Assembly (NCBI GenBank): GCA_963708135.1
Contig: OY970192.1
Coordinates: forward strand, 1,760,001 to 1,824,000
Reading direction: 5' to 3'
Origin: an uncultured Gemmatimonadales bacterium
Lineage (GTDB): Bacteria; Gemmatimonadota; Gemmatimonadetes; Longimicrobiales; RSA9
Length of the DNA: 64,000 bases
Position numbers and translations under genes: made by a program. Positions 50,609-56,763 of this stretch are shown here, piece after piece. A model generated the notes under the pieces. The model was not told the origin of the DNA. It did no database searches and worked only from the letters and a program-made list of their open reading frames with translations. Numbering within the stretch: the first letter of the stretch is position 1; every line of letters starts with the position of its first letter.

Positions 50609-51430
50609 ATGGACTACGACGCAGCGCTCAGGGTGCAGCCGGGAACCGCGCGGCTGGCGGACATCGATCCCGGGTTCGAGGCCGACCACCTGAGCAAGAA
50701 GGAGGCGAAGCTGGAGCTGGACCGCAAGCGCAAGAAGGTCCGCGACATCCAGGGCCTTCTGTACGCAACGCCGGTCCCTCCCTCCTCGTGTGCCTGCAGG
50801 GCCTGGACACCGCCGGCAAGGACGGGACGATCAACCTCGTATTCAGCGCCATGAACCTCCACGGGGTGCCGCGTGGCGGGAGTCAAGCAGCCCTCGGCCG
50901 AGGAGATGGCGCACGACCTCCTGTGGCGGATCCACCGGCACACTCCCGGCCTCGGCGAACTCGTGATCTTCAACCGCTCGCACTACGAGGACGTGCTCGT
51001 GGTGCGGGTGCACGACCTGGTCCCGAGGGACGAGTGGTCCGTGCGCTACGACCGGATCAACGACTTCGAGCGCGAGCTGACCAACCACGGGACCGTCGTT
51101 CTCAAGTTCTACCTCCACATCTCGCTGCGGGAGCAGCTCAAGCGCTTCCGGGACCGACTGGAGCAGCCGGACAAGCAGTGGAAGATCAGCGAGTCCGATT
51201 ACGCCGAGCGGCCGTACCGGGACGAGTACAGGCAGGCATACGAGGAGGCGCGGTCCCGGTGCTCCACCGAGCACGCGCCGTGGTTCGTGATCCCGGCCGA
51301 CAAAATGTGGTTCCGGAACCTGGCCATCGCGCACATCGTCGTCGAGCGGCTGCAGGCGCTCGGCCTGGGCTACCCGGAGCCCACCGTGGACCTGGACCAC
51401 ATCCGCCGCGAGTACCGCGACGCCGGGGGC
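50609..51430 (+). pseudogene. ppk2: Polyphosphate kinase 2 with frameshifts
   Basis: LQGLDTAGKDG, KQPSAEE..HD.LWR, FNRSHYEDVL and APWFVIPAD occur across three frames. Confidence 0.88.
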
Positions 51431-51895
51431 CGCCGAGGCCGTGGACGGGCGGGATGCGGCCGGTATGGCGCCGGCGGGGAGCGGCGCGGAAGGACCCGGA
51501 GGTTCGATGACCGGCAGTCATCCGCCCCGGACGGCGCTCGGCTGGCTCGACTCGGCCAACCTCCTCGCCCAGGTGGTGGCGAAGAGCTACGGCCTGGACT
51601 TCTCCGGCCGCGCCGACCCGCCCAAGGAGCTCACGATGGCGGGCCGGTTCGCGGCGCCTCCCGCGCACCCGGGCCGCTGGCCGGCGCTCCGCGTGCCGCT
51701 CCCGGCCTCGGCGTTCTTCGCCACGAAAGCCGAGAGCTTGCGGACCGAATTCGAGCCGGGACACCCCCGCATCACGGAGCCGGCCGCGTCGCGGCGGGAC
51801 GCCATCGTAGCGGACGGTGTCGATCGACTGGCGCACTCCGTCAGGCCAGAGGCGGGGTCCTCGAGCTCGGGGCACGCGAAGCGAGGCACGCCCTC

Positions 51896-53692
51896 ATGAG
51901 GTCGCTGGAGCTTCCCGACCGGGTCCCGCCGCTTTCGGGCTGGTTCCTGCAGATGTACCGCCTGGTGTGGATCGTGGTCGGCGCGGGCGCGGTCGCCAGC
52001 ATGGTCATGGCCTACCGGATGGAGGTCCGGGCGCAGGCCGCCGTCCGCGCCGAACACGATGTCGGGCTCGTAACGGAGGGAGTGGCTCCCGAAGGCGTGC
52101 GCGTGCGCCCGTTGGGTGGCATGGCGCGGCGCGCCGGAGTCCGCGACGGCAATGTGCTCCTTCGGGTCAACGGTGAGCCGGCGCGGGTCGAGGCCGTGCC
52201 GCTCGGCAGGATGCTCGACGGACCCGAAGGCGGAACGGTCGCGGTCACGCTGAAGCAGCTCGACGGCCGGGTCCAGGACGTCACGCTGGTCCGCAGCAGC
52301 GCCTACCTGCGTGACGCCTACGCCGGCAGCGGGCTGACGTTCGCCCGCCGCCGCTGGATCGAGTTCAGCATGAACATGCTGCAGATGGTGCTGATCTTCC
52401 TGGCGGCGATCCTGCTCTTCCTGCGGCGCTCGCGTGAATCGGTTGCGGCGATGTTGGCGTTGGCGCTGCTGCTGATGCTGATCTCCGAGCAGGGGCTAGG
52501 ACTACCGGCATGGACACAACGGGTCGGCCTGGCGTCATGGAGCGTCCTTTTTTCGCTGGGAATCCTGCTGTTTCCGGACGGACGCTTCGTGTCGCGCTGG
52601 ACATGGGCCGGCGTGGCGGTGAGCGCCGTTCAGACAGTGTACTTCGTGGCCGCACGCTACTACTCGCCCATCCTGGTCGTCATCCTCGGATCCTACCTCG
52701 CCACGCTGGCCGTGGCGGTGACCGTTCGCTACCGCAAGACGCCGCCGGGCACCGAGCGCCAGCAGATCAAGTACTTCGTCCTGGGCGTGGCGGGGTGGGC
52801 CGGCTGCTTCATCCTGTCCATGTTCGCCACGCCCGCGATGCGTTGGGTCACTGACGAAGGGAGCCGCGCCTGGCTCTTTCTGGCTCAGAACGCCGTCGAA
52901 GCGCTGGGAGACATCCTGCTCGGCCTCGGCCTGCTCACGTCGCTGCTGCGTTATCGGCTCTACGACGCCGACAGCGCCATCAGCCGCTCGGTGGCCATCG
53001 GAGCCCTGACGGTCACGATGGTCGCCATCTTCGCCGGCTCCGAGCAGCTCATAGGGGCCCTCGGCGAGCAGTATTTCGGCCAGGACCTGGGCATCATGGC
53101 GAGCGGGCTGGGCGCGGCGGTGGCGGCGGCCATGATCGCTCCCCTGCACCACCGCATGCACGCCTGGGCGGAGCGGCGCTTCCGCACCGGTCTGGCCCGT
53201 CTGCGCGACGATTTCCCGCTGCTGCTGGCGGACCTGAGGGAGACGATGTCGGTGCGCGGAATCGCCGAGACCGTGCTGGACGTGGTCCTGCCCGTGGTGC
53301 GAGCCACGCGTGGAGTCGTCGTAGTGGGCGGGGCGGTCGAGGCGACGCGGGAGGTCCTCGGCGAGGCGCTCGATCGCTGGCGTGCCGATTGGTCGTGGGA
53401 GTCAGAGTCAGGGCTCGCCATCGACGGTGGCGATTCGCTGCTGCCGGTGCGCGTGCTCCTGGAGGCGCCCGGCCACGGCGCCATGGGCTGGCTGCTGCTG
53501 GGCCCACGCCCGGACGGAAGCCTGTTCGGCAAGGACGAATGCGAAGCGCTGACGCGGCTCGCCGACCCGCTGGCGCGCGCGCTCGACATCGCCCGCCAAC
53601 GCGACGAGCGCGAGGCCGGGTACGAGCGCCGGATCGCCGCACTGGAGGCGGCCATCCGGCCGGGATCGGAACACGTCGGAAGAACTGCCTGA
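51896..53692 (+). CDS. PDZ plus multi-TM plus GAF-like membrane protein without recognisable output domain
   Basis: ARRAGVRDG..LLRVNG PDZ; RQQIK and LLRYRLYD sensor-type TM motifs; LLLGPRPDGSLF..DE. Confidence 0.72.
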   Translation: MRSLELPDRVPPLSGWFLQMYRLVWIVVGAGAVASMVMAYRMEVRAQAAVRAEHDVGLVTEGVAPEGVRVRPLGGMARRAGVRDGNVLLRVNGEPARVEAVPLGRMLDGPEGGTVAVTLKQLDGRVQDVTLVRSSAYLRDAYAGSGLTFARRRWIEFSMNMLQMVLIFLAAILLFLRRSRESVAAMLALALLLMLISEQGLGLPAWTQRVGLASWSVLFSLGILLFPDGRFVSRWTWAGVAVSAVQTVYFVAARYYSPILVVILGSYLATLAVAVTVRYRKTPPGTERQQIKYFVLGVAGWAGCFILSMFATPAMRWVTDEGSRAWLFLAQNAVEALGDILLGLGLLTSLLRYRLYDADSAISRSVAIGALTVTMVAIFAGSEQLIGALGEQYFGQDLGIMASGLGAAVAAAMIAPLHHRMHAWAERRFRTGLARLRDDFPLLLADLRETMSVRGIAETVLDVVLPVVRATRGVVVVGGAVEATREVLGEALDRWRADWSWESESGLAIDGGDSLLPVRVLLEAPGHGAMGWLLLGPRPDGSLFGKDECEALTRLADPLARALDIARQRDEREAGYERRIAALEAAIRPGSEHVGRTA

Positions 53693-53877
53693 GGCTGGAG
53701 ATCTCGTTCCCGGGCTCTTCGGCTCCCTCGAGCCCCGCGACTCGGCGCCCGCCGCATCACCGGCTCCTCCCCCGATCTCGGTCGAGACCGTCGGTCCGGT
53801 TGGCTCGACTCACTCCGCCCTGGCATCCCGACCAACACCGGCCGGATCGGGGGGCTCCTTCAAAGGACTTCGCATTC

Positions 53878-54534
53878 ATGCCATCGGAACGATCCGAAAC
53901 CCCGCCTGACGATCCCCTTGGTGGTCGACACCCGACCAGTCATGAACAGATGGCGGGACGGCCCTGGGGCGCGTCATACCACGACGGCCCTGCGCCCTGG
54001 GATATAGACCGACCGCAGCCAGCCATTGTCCGCCTGGCGTCCCAGGGGAGTGTTCGCGGGACCGTACTCGATGCCGGTTGCGGGACGGGCGAGAACACTC
54101 TTCACATCGCGTCGCTGGCATTGCCCGTTCTGGGGGTCAACGTGGCGGAAACCGCCATCGCCCGACGGAAGGCCGACGATCGTGGGATCGAAGTCGAGTT
54201 CGCCGCGGCCGACGCGCTCCACCTGGAGAGCCTGGAGCGCACATTCGAGACGGTGCTGGACTGCGGACTGTTTCACACATTCGACGCCGACGAGCGAGCG
54301 ACGTACGTGGCGAGTCTCGGATCGGTGACCGGGCGTAGTGGTACCCTGTACGTATTGTGCTTCAGTAACGAGGATCCCGATACGGGGCCCCACACGATCC
54401 GCCCGGACGAGCTGAGAGCGGCGTTCACCGCCGCCGGTGGATGGAGTATCGCCGAGCTGAGCGCGGAGCGCATCGAGACGCGATTTCACGACAACGGCGC
54501 ACCGGCCTGGTTGGCGACCATCCAAAGGATTTAG
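53878..54534 (+). CDS. Class I SAM-dependent methyltransferase
   Basis: APWDIDRPQP, VLDAGCGTGEN, VLDCGLFH. Confidence 0.85.
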   Translation: MPSERSETPPDDPLGGRHPTSHEQMAGRPWGASYHDGPAPWDIDRPQPAIVRLASQGSVRGTVLDAGCGTGENTLHIASLALPVLGVNVAETAIARRKADDRGIEVEFAAADALHLESLERTFETVLDCGLFHTFDADERATYVASLGSVTGRSGTLYVLCFSNEDPDTGPHTIRPDELRAAFTAAGGWSIAELSAERIETRFHDNGAPAWLATIQRI

Positions 54535-54632
54535 GCGTGCGTGGGCGCGCGCCGGCGGACCTGGCAGCGCCTCGGCGGACCCTCGCGCGTGCAGCACCGC
54601 CGAGCGGCCCTTGGTGGCGCCGGGCGGCCTCC

Positions 54633-54794
54633 TCAGTCCTGCGGCGCCATCGGCAGCTCGCGCACGTGCCGGCCCGTGAGCGCGAACCAGGCGTTGGTGA
54701 GCGCCGGGGCGGCGGGTGGGAGGCCCGGCTCGCCGACCCCCCCCGGGTCCTCGCGGCTGTCCACGATGTGCACGTCGATCTCGGGCGCCTCCAG
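54633..54794 (-). pseudogene. C-terminal fragment of a xanthine dehydrogenase/IorB-type molybdopterin subunit
   Basis: EAPEIDVHIV...GGVGEPGLPPAAPALTNA..ALTG..RELP. Confidence 0.85.
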
Positions 54795-54819
54795 TGGAGC
54801 CGGCGGGAGTCGAACCCGC
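54795..54819 (-). other. Isolated 3' end of tmRNA/tRNA-Ala (att-like), not a full gene
   Basis: GCGGG-TTCGACT-CCCGC T-arm plus CGGCTCC-A acceptor strand with U70 and A73. Confidence 0.78.
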
Positions 54820-54979
54820 ACCAGATCCCCCACCCCCGGATCGCGATTCGCCAGTAACCGCAACAACTATGAGCGGTTTCGACCGTCGGGGTGTGGGCCG
54901 CCAGGTCCGGCGCTGACGGCCGGCGCGTTGTCCCGCTCCGCCATGGTGGTGCCCCGGGTCTCGTCGAACCCTTCGGGGC

Positions 54980-56569
54980 ATGCCCACCGTCGCACGCCCC
55001 CGATCCGTTTGGGTCCCGCCGCAGGCACAGGCGCACCGCCCAGGGCACTCCGCAACGCCACCCGCCCAGGCCGCCGTTTACCGCCGACGACGGCCCACGG
55101 CCACGCCCCTCTACCCCATCGTCCAGCACCACATCGAGGGCTTCCTGGCCCGGGCCGCCGAAGCCGATCCCTGGGGCGAGGGCGTGGCCGGCTGGGTCGA
55201 GGCCGACTTCCGGGCCTACCTCCGCTGCGGCATCCTGGCCCACGGCTTCGCCCGCGTCCGCTGTGACGACTGCGCCGCCGAGCGCCTCGTCGCCTTCTCC
55301 TGCAAGGGCCGCGGCGTCTGCCCCTCCTGCAACGCCCGCCGGATGGTCGAGGTCGCCGCGCACCTGAACGACGCCGTCCTGCCGCCGCTCCCGATCCGCC
55401 AATGGGTCCTCTCCGTCCCGAAGCGGATCCGCCCCTTCTTCCACCACGATCCCGCCCTTGCCGGCGCCGTGCTCCGGATCCTGCTCCGGGCCGTCCGCAC
55501 CCGCCTGCGTCACGGCAGTCCCGGTGCCGGCCCGGACGCGCAGATCGGCGCCGTCTCCTTCCTCCACCGCTTCGGCTCCGCCCTCAATCCCCACTTCCAC
55601 TTCCACGTCGTGGTTCTCAATGGCGTCTTCACCGGGACCGTGGACGGCGAGGTCCGCTTCGATGAGGCGACCCACTTTTCCGCCGACGACGCCTCCGCCC
55701 TCACGCCCGTCCTCCAGCGCCGCATCCTGCGCCTCTTCCAACGCCGCGGCCTCCTCGAGGAGCACACGGTGAACGACATGCTCACCTGGCAGGGCACCGG
55801 CGGCTTCAGCCTCGACGCCTCCGTCCGCATCCACGGCGCCGACCGGGCCGGCCGCGAGCGCCTCCTCCGCTACTGCGCCCGGCCGCCGTTTGCCCTCGAT
55901 CGCCTGCGGATCGAGCGTCAGTCCGGAGGGCGGGCCGACGACGACGCGGGGGTCCGCCGCGTGTTCTACCGACCCTCCCGGCCCACCTCCGACGGACGCG
56001 CTCTCCTCGCCCTCTCACCCCTCCAGTTTCTGGAAGCACTTTCCCAGCTGATCCCGCCGCCCCGGGTTCACCGCCACCGCTACCACGGCGTTCTCGCCCC
56101 CAACGCACGGCTCCGGCCCCGGGTCGTCGCCCTCGAACGCGACGCAGAGGCCCACGCGGACGAAGCCCACGGCGAGGGGCCCGGGGTCCACACCCACAAC
56201 GAGCCCGCTACCACCCTCACCGGCGCCGCCGCCCGCTCCCGCTGGGCCCAGCTCCTCGCCCGCATCTACGAGGTCTTCCCCCTCCGCTGCCCCGAGTGCG
56301 GCTCGCAGATGCGCATCATCGCTTTCCTCACCGACCCCGCGCCCGTGGGCGCCATCCTCCGACATCTCGACCTGCCCCATACCACACCGCCGCTCTCCCC
56401 CGCACGCGCTCCACCCCAAGTCGCCTTCGACCTCGACGCCGATTCCGTGCGCGCGATGCCGAAACAGGATCCCGTGCCGGCGGAAGACTTCGACCAGACG
56501 CCCGGCTTGGACGCGGCCGACCCCGAGCCCGTACCCGAGCTCGACCTCGACCAGACCCGCGGAGTCTGA
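54980..56569 (+). CDS. IS91-family HUH transposase with Zn-binding domain
   Basis: CG.LAHGF..C..C...SCKGRG.CPSC; HFHFH; RLLRYCARPP; RYHGV; CPECG. Confidence 0.93.
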   Translation: MPTVARPRSVWVPPQAQAHRPGHSATPPAQAAVYRRRRPTATPLYPIVQHHIEGFLARAAEADPWGEGVAGWVEADFRAYLRCGILAHGFARVRCDDCAAERLVAFSCKGRGVCPSCNARRMVEVAAHLNDAVLPPLPIRQWVLSVPKRIRPFFHHDPALAGAVLRILLRAVRTRLRHGSPGAGPDAQIGAVSFLHRFGSALNPHFHFHVVVLNGVFTGTVDGEVRFDEATHFSADDASALTPVLQRRILRLFQRRGLLEEHTVNDMLTWQGTGGFSLDASVRIHGADRAGRERLLRYCARPPFALDRLRIERQSGGRADDDAGVRRVFYRPSRPTSDGRALLALSPLQFLEALSQLIPPPRVHRHRYHGVLAPNARLRPRVVALERDAEAHADEAHGEGPGVHTHNEPATTLTGAAARSRWAQLLARIYEVFPLRCPECGSQMRIIAFLTDPAPVGAILRHLDLPHTTPPLSPARAPPQVAFDLDADSVRAMPKQDPVPAEDFDQTPGLDAADPEPVPELDLDQTRGV

Positions 56570-56763
56570 GGGGCGGAGCCACGCCTGACACCCGCCTGAC
56601 GCAGCAGTCTCCACTCCATCGCCTCGGTTCGGCTCGGTTCGGCTTGCTCTCCGGCCCTCAAACCCTCCCACCCGTCCATCACGAGCACCCTTGACGCCTC
56701 GATCCCCAACCACGCACCCTACCGAAACCGGCCGAAACGGCGTTTGGATTTCCTATCCCTCGC

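Follow-up and report, generated by a model that had tools for sequence, protein, structure and literature searches.

Background

Islands that enter tRNA or tmRNA genes by means of a tyrosine integrase leave the gene intact and carry its 3' segment directly repeated at their far end, and repeated blocks running from the anticodon arm or the T-stem to the gene end are the classic att pattern of these enzymes. HUH relaxases, TrwC among them, can integrate DNA site-specifically where a hairpin followed by a nick site resembles their own origin. The insertion sequences IS91, IS801 and IS1294 encode an HUH transposase with a zinc-binding N-terminus and have two distinct ends, the conserved one lying downstream of the gene; according to the excerpted text of PMC13181058, failure to terminate co-mobilises DNA of their left flank, and such one-ended transposition yields a right end that stays constant, left ends that vary and a joint, head to tail, between oriIS and the flank. 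The ISCR elements are the least understood members of the IS91 family; it is still disputed where they end on the left and how they actually move. The only tested case is that of CR2-sul2, which moves by a borrowed integrase: the attLR site of GIsul2 lies 119 bp upstream of the ISCR2 transposase gene rcr2, and the GIsul2 integrase moves the CR2-sul2 unit (PMC9376610, in excerpt). Among the papers listed in literature searches on IS91 ends, integrases and islands, none dealt with IS91/ISCR elements at tRNA or tmRNA genes.

Here we analyse such an element in a stretch of 64 kb (64,000 nucleotides, called the window throughout) and compare it with its relatives in other genomes. A preliminary description of the window had proposed that the element begins at the 3' end of a tmRNA or tRNA-Ala gene, either because it uses a tmRNA-like hairpin as its terIS or because it borrows an island integrase to enter ssrA.

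Results and Discussion

A distant IS91/ISCR-like element with a sharp right end

The features of the locus are listed in Table 1. The transposase matches the Pfam profiles Y2_Tnp (82.9 bits, cut-off 20.9) and Zn_Tnp_IS91 (63.6 bits, cut-off 26.3), thus combining an HUH/Y2 catalytic domain with an N-terminal zinc-binding domain, and also matches TrwC (25.8 bits). With the NCBIfam models it scores 279.6 bits for ISCR_clade_Ia (cut-off 925) and 96.9 bits for transpos_IS91 (cut-off 125), reaching neither cut-off, and its nearest plasmid-borne relatives are 43-48% identical. To judge from these scores the protein is a distant member of the IS91/ISCR family, nearer to the ISCR clade Ia model. Its ATG lies 160 nt from the inner end of a 25-nt tmRNA gene fragment, the distance at which the preliminary description had placed an HUH transposase.

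Table 1. Features at and around the IS91/ISCR-like element (window coordinates)
Feature	Position	Strand	Basis
SAM-dependent methyltransferase gene, start uncertain	53389..54534	+	Pfam Methyltransf_25/TPMT, residues 192-361 of mechanical ORF
Left-flank DNA co-copied with the element	54393..54888 (shorter version from 54542)	+	shared by copies B and C
IorB-type molybdopterin oxidoreductase beta subunit, C-terminal ~52 aa, cut at the tmRNA fragment	54636..54794	-	tblastn to paralogues
Att-type fragment, 25-nt copy of the host ssrA 3' end	54795..54819	-	exact 25/25 match
69-nt leader, from the tmRNA fragment to the left end defined by copy D	54820..54888	+	conserved in G409 and G608 copy 1
IS91/ISCR-like insertion sequence, copy A, 1872 bp	54889..56760	+	left end from copy D; right end sharp in 5/5
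Transposase gene, 529 aa, HUH/Y2 type	54980..56569	+	Pfam, NCBIfam
Conserved right terminus GGCGTTTGGATTTCCTATCCCT, oriIS-like end	56739..56760	+	same end point in 5 copies

The right terminus, an oriIS-like end that probably resembles published oriIS sequences, is sharp in all five copies of the element in this genome, each in a different flank, and the same terminus closes the copies in the related genomes G409 and G608. The bases past the terminal CCCT (CGCA, GACG, CCGG, TCGA and CACG) show no consensus and no adjoining GTTC or CTTG; judging from these flanks, the CCCT itself could be either the end of the element or a constant target. The organisation is thus that of IS91, IS801 and IS1294 (PMC13181058, in excerpt) in its transposase, its distinct ends and its conserved end downstream of the gene, from which the element differs in that its protein falls under the NCBIfam IS91 cut-off with at most 48% identity to plasmid-borne relatives, in having no GTTC/CTTG at the right end, and in having no orf121.

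The inverted repeat noted earlier in the leader is present as AACCGC (54856-54861) and GCGGTT (54873-54878) around an 11-nt loop and is conserved in two other genomes. Predicted single-strand DNA folds of the leader-fragment region in three genomes and of the right end gave z values of -0.7, -1.4 and +0.6, with -2.4 in G409 alone, so that none was more stable than its shuffles except, weakly, that of G409, which lends no support either way.

The fragment is a copy of the end of ssrA

The plus strand at the fragment reads TGGAGCCGGCGGGAGTCGAACCCGC, whose reverse complement forms a perfect T-arm (a 5-bp stem, GCGGG/CCCGC, with the loop TTCGACT) followed by the 7-nt acceptor 3' strand CGGCTCC and the discriminator A, confirming the earlier observation of a T-arm and acceptor strand ending at the discriminator where the IorB fragment is cut. 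In comparison with the host gene, all 25 positions match the end of the real tmRNA gene (genome 1854515-1854539), and the 25-mer of the window is a copy of that end. The intact ssrA (genome 1854515-1854879; tag ANSNMALAA by ARAGORN; 166 bits in Rfam) lies outside the window, 39.7 kb from the fragment and in the same orientation, the locus having intact ssrA at the proximal boundary of an island and a direct repeat of its end at the distal one. The 5.45-Mb genome holds four exact matches to the 25-mer, all on the minus strand, and none to the reversed control, an abundance far above chance; they are the end of ssrA and three identical fragments downstream of it, at 1814795 (the window copy), 1836104 and 1847761, in common orientation. 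The identical 25-mer closes ssrA in each of the five family relatives read. ARAGORN found no tRNA or tmRNA gene in the window, and the local Rfam match to tmRNA at 54792-54836 (21.3 bits) stays under the gathering score of 47.

As a separate observation on RNA genes, ARAGORN found a dense array outside the window, at genome 5377229-5381066, where 3.9 kb hold 23 tRNA genes, all on the same strand, with many of the anticodons present elsewhere in the genome as well; clusters of tRNA-like Rfam matches similar to this array occur in relatives.

Directly past the discriminator, on the minus strand, begins the frame of the IorB-type C-terminus, which is 61% identical over 36 aa (tblastn) to the C-terminus of a 711-aa paralogue carrying MoCoBD_1/2 and a TAT signal. 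With this paralogue as query, the 5' part of the cut iorB was found nowhere in the genome, the region 1.81-1.86 Mb included. In one tblastn alignment the match to IorB continues, past a 6-aa gap, into the 25-mer and leader with five more residues (LVRVR against MVRMR); other genomes conserve those bases together with the element, which is why we consider the extension fortuitous. The outer flank is hence a truncated iorB and no native ssrA flank, indicating that the junction has been displaced from its original setting. Further out, the methyltransferase gene is intact at copy A alone. Upstream in the window, an open frame of 939 aa (50873-53692) matches PPK2 over its first 161 residues only; the remainder is long and membrane-like with a weak PDZ match, and the frame may be two genes or a fusion.

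Read-through transposition multiplied the fragment

The genome has five IS91-like copies, every one of them situated between 1.814 and 1.850 Mb; their right ends agree and their left ends differ. Copy D (genome 1828492-1830344) measures 1853 bp and has its left end at the point that corresponds to window position 54889, without the leader and without the tmRNA fragment, both of which are present in copies A (that of the window), B and C. Copy B shares 496 bp of the left flank of A, from 54393 and thus from within the 3' end of the methyltransferase gene, and copy C shares 347 bp of it, from 54542; the co-copied flank comprises the methyltransferase 3' end, a spacer, the IorB fragment, the tmRNA fragment and the leader. 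Twelve nucleotides, corresponding to one GGGTGTGGGCTT repeat, are missing in copies A, B and C and present in copy D, in G409 and in copy 1 of G608, the stretch being present less one base in copy 2 of G608.

The flank of copy B is separated from the right end of the partial copy E solely by an IS21 element with a 7-bp target duplication. When IS21 is removed the sequence reads ...TATCCCT followed immediately by CACGATCC, that is, the oriIS of copy E joined to A-coordinate 1814393. Copy E itself (genome 1831766-1833033) lacks the N-terminal half of the gene and contains an internal direct duplication of 242 bp.

Copies B and C and the joint of copy E thus display one-ended transposition with DNA from the terIS side, as in the IS91 family. 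Given the constant right end, the variable left ends and the joint between oriIS and the flank, the three fragments of this genome are copies of one junction: the tmRNA fragment lies outside the minimal insertion sequence and has been multiplied by read-through transposition. Since copy D has no motif and copies B and C extend past it, the motif is not a working terminus in this genome, and the proposal of a tmRNA-mimicking terIS hairpin is unsupported here because both extended copies read through it.

We also sought the target site of copy D through a paralogue of its left flank, whose right flank failed to align. In contigs of the probable source run, the assembly graph branches at 54393 (the loose end being an IS21 end) and at 56761; in public-run contigs the homology of relatives begins near 54889-54939, and no circle or excision joints were found in them. 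The 40 kb downstream of ssrA are an IS graveyard, with two IS21 elements, IS4/5-family elements, two tandem DDE_Tnp_1_4 elements and the five IS91-like copies. The two DDE_Tnp_1_4 copies (genome 1838890-1842450) are 1.77 kb long, 99.8% identical and 20 bp apart, and have more copies elsewhere in the genome.

tmRNA gene ends beside related transposases in other genomes

Relatives of the transposase were collected by whole-genome searches, which found them in 47 of 401 sampled genomes of the phylum and in 88 of 401 sampled genomes of the order; a contig-level search had yielded a single relative. These tallies include the genomes G097, G412, G413, G416 and G488, flagged as unpublished, from which no analysed locus comes.

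A tmRNA fragment lies ~150-230 bp upstream of the predicted transposase start, on the opposite strand, in G409 (contig C2, where the copy is truncated), G608 (copy 1), G631 (C12) and G547 (C297). The recurrence of the motif upstream of homologous transposases with variable outer flanks, which the preliminary description had made the touchstone of its proposal, is thereby borne out, the tRNA fragments of further relatives (see below) pointing the same way. In G631:C12 there are two tmRNA fragments, the second accompanied by the leader with no transposase called beside it. The outer flanks diverge from the base after the discriminator. This genome has the cut iorB there, G409 and G547 have sequence unrelated to it, and G608 and G631 have terminator-like hairpins that resemble the terminator following ssrA in the host.

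The acceptor bases of the fragments track the host. Both hosts of family f1 have CGGCTCCA at these positions, and the f2 genomes G608 and G631 have CGCCTCCA, in agreement with the ssrA ends of these same genomes; the G547 fragment also has CGCCTCCA, the comparison with the host covering the f1 hosts, G608 and G631. The 5' strand of the T-stem departs from the host in G608 and G631 (GCCGG and ACCGG). A host-type acceptor combined with a deviant T-stem makes, on the aligned bases, the chimeric pattern that would be expected from a crossover inside the block.

The leader can be aligned among this genome (G000), G409 and G608 and is conserved across transposases that are 64-81% identical by tblastn (75-88% over the N-terminal 260 aa). 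Its 28-nt core occurs in three of 401 genomes of the order, every time beside the fragment and the transposase. A metagenome scan with a 17-nt core, a pattern too short for the purpose, gave chance matches, none of the 80 fetched loci having the extended motif or an adjoining T-arm. The leader also contains a complement of the acceptor strand, perfect in G409 (GGAGCCGG), 7/8 in G000, 6/8 in G608 and absent in G631; in G409 the result is an imperfect palindrome in subterminal position, beside the boundary.

The architecture of this genome is repeated in G608, in which ssrA is followed by a recombinase-free island of 15.3 kb with the element and fragment at its far end; copy 2 of that genome has a shorter left end, inside the hairpin loop, and is without the motif. 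In the family of the host, ssrA is a hot spot for islands: G409 has att repeats 1.6 and 6.3 kb downstream of the gene.

Some details of these loci are recorded for their own sake. The 6.3-kb insert downstream of ssrA in G409 (contig C1, locus L065, 10229-16532) is free of recombinase genes and is bounded by a 23/25 repeat of the gene end and a terminator like that of the gene itself, with a 20-nt partial repeat at +1.6 kb. In G608 (L100), the first 300 bp or less downstream of ssrA hold a terminator, an inverted 21-nt copy of the T-arm and acceptor, a direct 16-nt repeat of the gene end and a second terminator. On contig C2 of G409 (L097, 5315-5336), a solitary complete terminus of the oriIS type follows an oxidoreductase gene with no transposase adjoining, 4.6 kb from the truncated copy that has the tmRNA fragment.

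tRNA gene ends and the survey of relatives

Other relatives carry 3' fragments of tRNA genes, 44-55 nt long and starting in the anticodon arm, on the opposite strand and 170-450 bp upstream of the transposase. They derive from tRNA-Ala(UGC) in G116 (47/48 positions identical to the host gene, with a second copy on another contig), tRNA-Ile(GAU) in G322, where two further short fragments stand in tandem, tRNA-Leu(UAA) in G616 and tRNA-Arg(CCG) in G666 and G631:C6. In the G322 locus (contig C112, L046, ~787-1213) the three tandem tRNA-Ile 3' fragments are ~200 bp apart with similar sequence after each, and the longest (44 nt) adjoins the IS91-like element; the series looks like serial att scars.

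The survey comprised two sets of loci. The first consisted of 38 distinct loci from other genomes that included the transposase N-terminus and at least 300 bp upstream (40 qualified and two repeat fetches were dropped), among which a pattern search detected a perfect T-arm at four and BLAST added L075. The second consisted of 18 places picked from the matches in order genomes (query start at or below 35, contig long enough, two regions that overlapped earlier loci excluded), three of which were positive. In total an RNA-gene 3' fragment was found at 8 of the 56 loci and none at the other 48; copy 1 of G608 and the second G631 fragment stand outside this count. The strand of the fragment was the same in all eight and the boundary fell exactly at the discriminator, no BLAST-supported fragment was found upstream on the transposase's own strand, and elsewhere in 57 whole loci the strict T-arm pattern had no match on either strand. 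The junction of an RNA-gene 3' fragment with the leader is thus a recurrent and oriented feature of the clade.

The multiple alignment made from 33 upstream regions was so noisy that no common left terminus could be placed. Two single loci deserve mention: L018, from a distant relative (36% identity), with a tRNA-Lys-like sequence on the transposase's strand, and L009 (G364:C61), where RF02001, a domain of group II introns, matches at 2618-2785 with 43.1 bits, which exceeds the gathering score, directly upstream of an IS91-like transposase gene.

The search for a recombinase

No tyrosine or serine recombinase was found within ~330 kb of the fragment. The window contains no PF00589 and no PF00239 match, which agrees with the earlier statement that it holds neither an integrase nor a complete tRNA gene; the nearest PF00589 match lies at genome 1482630 (~330 kb off) and the sole PF00239 match at 4741827, the whole genome having five tyrosine recombinases of full length. 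From 1.810 to 1.860 Mb the scan covered 20 large ORFs, which were IS transposases, a toxin-antitoxin pair and ordinary genes, with no recombinase gene among them. Nor was one present among the ORFs scanned in the 15.3-kb island of G608, in the 14 kb between the two fragments of G631 or at the G409 loci, in the flanks seen elsewhere, or, as regards integrases, among the upstream ORFs of distant relatives (31-41% identity).

These results bear on two observations that would have told against the preliminary interpretation. One was that other copies might lack the motif: copy D, copy 2 of G608 and 48 of the 56 loci of relatives do so, against which stands the recurrence of the fragment in other genomes. 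The other was that the motif might pair with a complete ssrA and a nearby integrase as an ordinary att site: a directly oriented ssrA exists at 39.7 kb here and at 15.3 kb in G608, but no integrase was found. The interpretation as a whole therefore survives in part, in the oriented recurrence at tmRNA and tRNA gene ends, and fails in respect of the fragment as a working terminus in this genome.

Comparison with known arrangements

The closest counterpart is ISCR2/CR2-sul2 which, going by the excerpt of PMC9376610, has likewise an ISCR transposase with an att site shortly upstream (119 bp there and 160 nt here), a left boundary of the mobile unit in the att core, and several att copies in direct order. 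It differs in that the att core of GIsul2 is the 3' end of guaA, the site here being the end of the tmRNA gene (of tRNA genes in relatives); in that the GIsul2 integrase is encoded by the island and shown to act, none having been found here; and in its hosts, those of the present elements being soil bacteria of another phylum with no resistance genes. The preliminary account went too far in treating the mechanism as undescribed: a published case has an att site, upstream of the transposase of ISCR2, that the GIsul2 integrase uses (PMC9376610, in excerpt). The element is a distant IS91/ISCR member beside a putative att scar of ssrA; with it the known arrangement of ISCR plus att site reaches another phylum and takes in the genes of tmRNA and tRNAs.

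With islands of tyrosine integrases the locus has in common the block running from the T-arm, or from the anticodon arm in relatives, to the gene 3' end. It departs from them in that the three fully read intervals (this genome, G608 and G631) contain no integrase, and in that the fragment here is flanked by a cut iorB and was multiplied by a transposon. The likeness to TrwC-type integration consists of the weak TrwC match of the transposase (25.8 bits), with no sign here that the transposase recognises a tRNA-like sequence.

How the junction may have arisen

The explanation that we tentatively prefer, granting it a probability somewhat short of even, is that site-specific entry into ssrA left the fragment as an att-type scar, the element being the island-side arm and a tyrosine integrase acting in trans the most likely enzyme. 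Foreign DNA would have recombined site-specifically with ssrA, and the displaced tmRNA 3' end would have remained as the scar; the island-side arm of the junction would be the conserved leader and the left end of the element, and scar and element would have travelled as one unit. Two more copies of the unit, each with part of the outer flank (347-496 bp), then came from the element's own rolling-circle, one-ended transposition, leaving three identical fragments downstream of the intact ssrA. We infer that the first junction came from conservative site-specific recombination: fragments that are chimeric and track the host, together with terminators that look native, speak for junctions made, like att sites, by recombination with the resident gene. 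By analogy with the action of the GIsul2 integrase on CR2-sul2, an integrase in trans is most likely to be the enzyme, rather than the transposase, because the limits of the block are att-like, because the element moves without the fragment, and because of the GIsul2 precedent; given that no recombinase was found in the intervals examined, such an integrase is an assumption. Further points tell against the att-scar reading: the outer flank here is the truncated iorB, several integrase specificities would be required for five different RNA genes, the four genomes behind the host-tracking argument are related to one another, and a leader never seen apart from the transposase fits transposase action equally well.

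The latter possibility, that the Y2/HUH transposase makes the junction without any integrase, by targeting the 3' part of tRNA and tmRNA genes or by using a tRNA-like hairpin and tail as its terminus, is the main rival, and one that we regard as unlikely. It would account for intervals devoid of recombinases and for a leader motif never found without the transposase, and in G409, and nearly so in G000, for the acceptor complement in the leader. The fragment always abuts the leader on the terIS side, in one orientation, where transposases of the IS91 family cut and join, and in ssrA the step at the inner edge of the fragment is followed by GTCC on the element's top strand, a listed target of the family (both by the excerpt of PMC13181058). 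On the other hand, neither of the two extended copies here ends at the motif, copy D and copy 2 of G608 moved without it, and in none of the eight right flanks read does an oriIS end abut a tRNA or tmRNA gene or its 5' part. A minimal insertion of gene, element and fragment was sought in G547:C297, where the transposase gene proved truncated and the contig had no ssrA. The acceptor complement is moreover weak in G608 and absent in G631, the folds, G409 excepted, are no more stable than shuffles, and the block has the limits typical of tyrosine-integrase att sites. That a whole clade of ISCR-like elements in soil bacteria of the Gemmatimonadota type inserts into the 3' parts of tmRNA and tRNA genes by its own HUH/Y2 transposase, with lineages tuned to tmRNA, Ala, Ile, Leu and Arg, would be the broad form of this proposal, and is likewise rather improbable.

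It is doubtful, again, that no functional link exists, the element simply landing or surviving in decaying island ends at tRNA and tmRNA genes with the scar as a passenger of one-ended transposition. The IS graveyard past ssrA, in which all five IS91-like copies lie, the 48 loci of relatives with no fragment and the demonstrated copying of flank DNA by read-through are what one would expect under such an account. Mere carriage fits less well with a single strand in 8/8 loci, a narrow range of distances, five RNA-gene identities, a leader conserved across divergent transposases and a boundary exactly at the discriminator, and a tRNA 3' fragment is almost never expected in a random stretch of 600 bp. 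Finally, it is highly improbable that leader and fragment are transcribed as a small tRNA-like minihelix (an acceptor stem with G3:U70 plus the T-arm) having a function of its own, in that the pairing of leader GGGGUGG with the acceptor strand in the local Rfam alignment, perfect as the complement is in G409, is not conserved in G608 or G631 and scores under the Rfam threshold.

Implications for the ISCR elements

Independently of GIsul2, and in taxonomically remote hosts, the loci described here make up a second set of ISCR-like elements with an att-type left boundary, covering at least five RNA-gene identities in nine genomes. With such a set at tmRNA and tRNA gene ends, the link between ISCR elements and att sites looks general and no quirk of GIsul2. 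The positions of the related elements suggest that they enter such genes or ride into them, and the system is well suited to deciding between the HUH transposase and a helper integrase as the agent. If the transposase acts, it would represent a new class of integrase targeting tRNA genes, with no tyrosine or serine recombinase.
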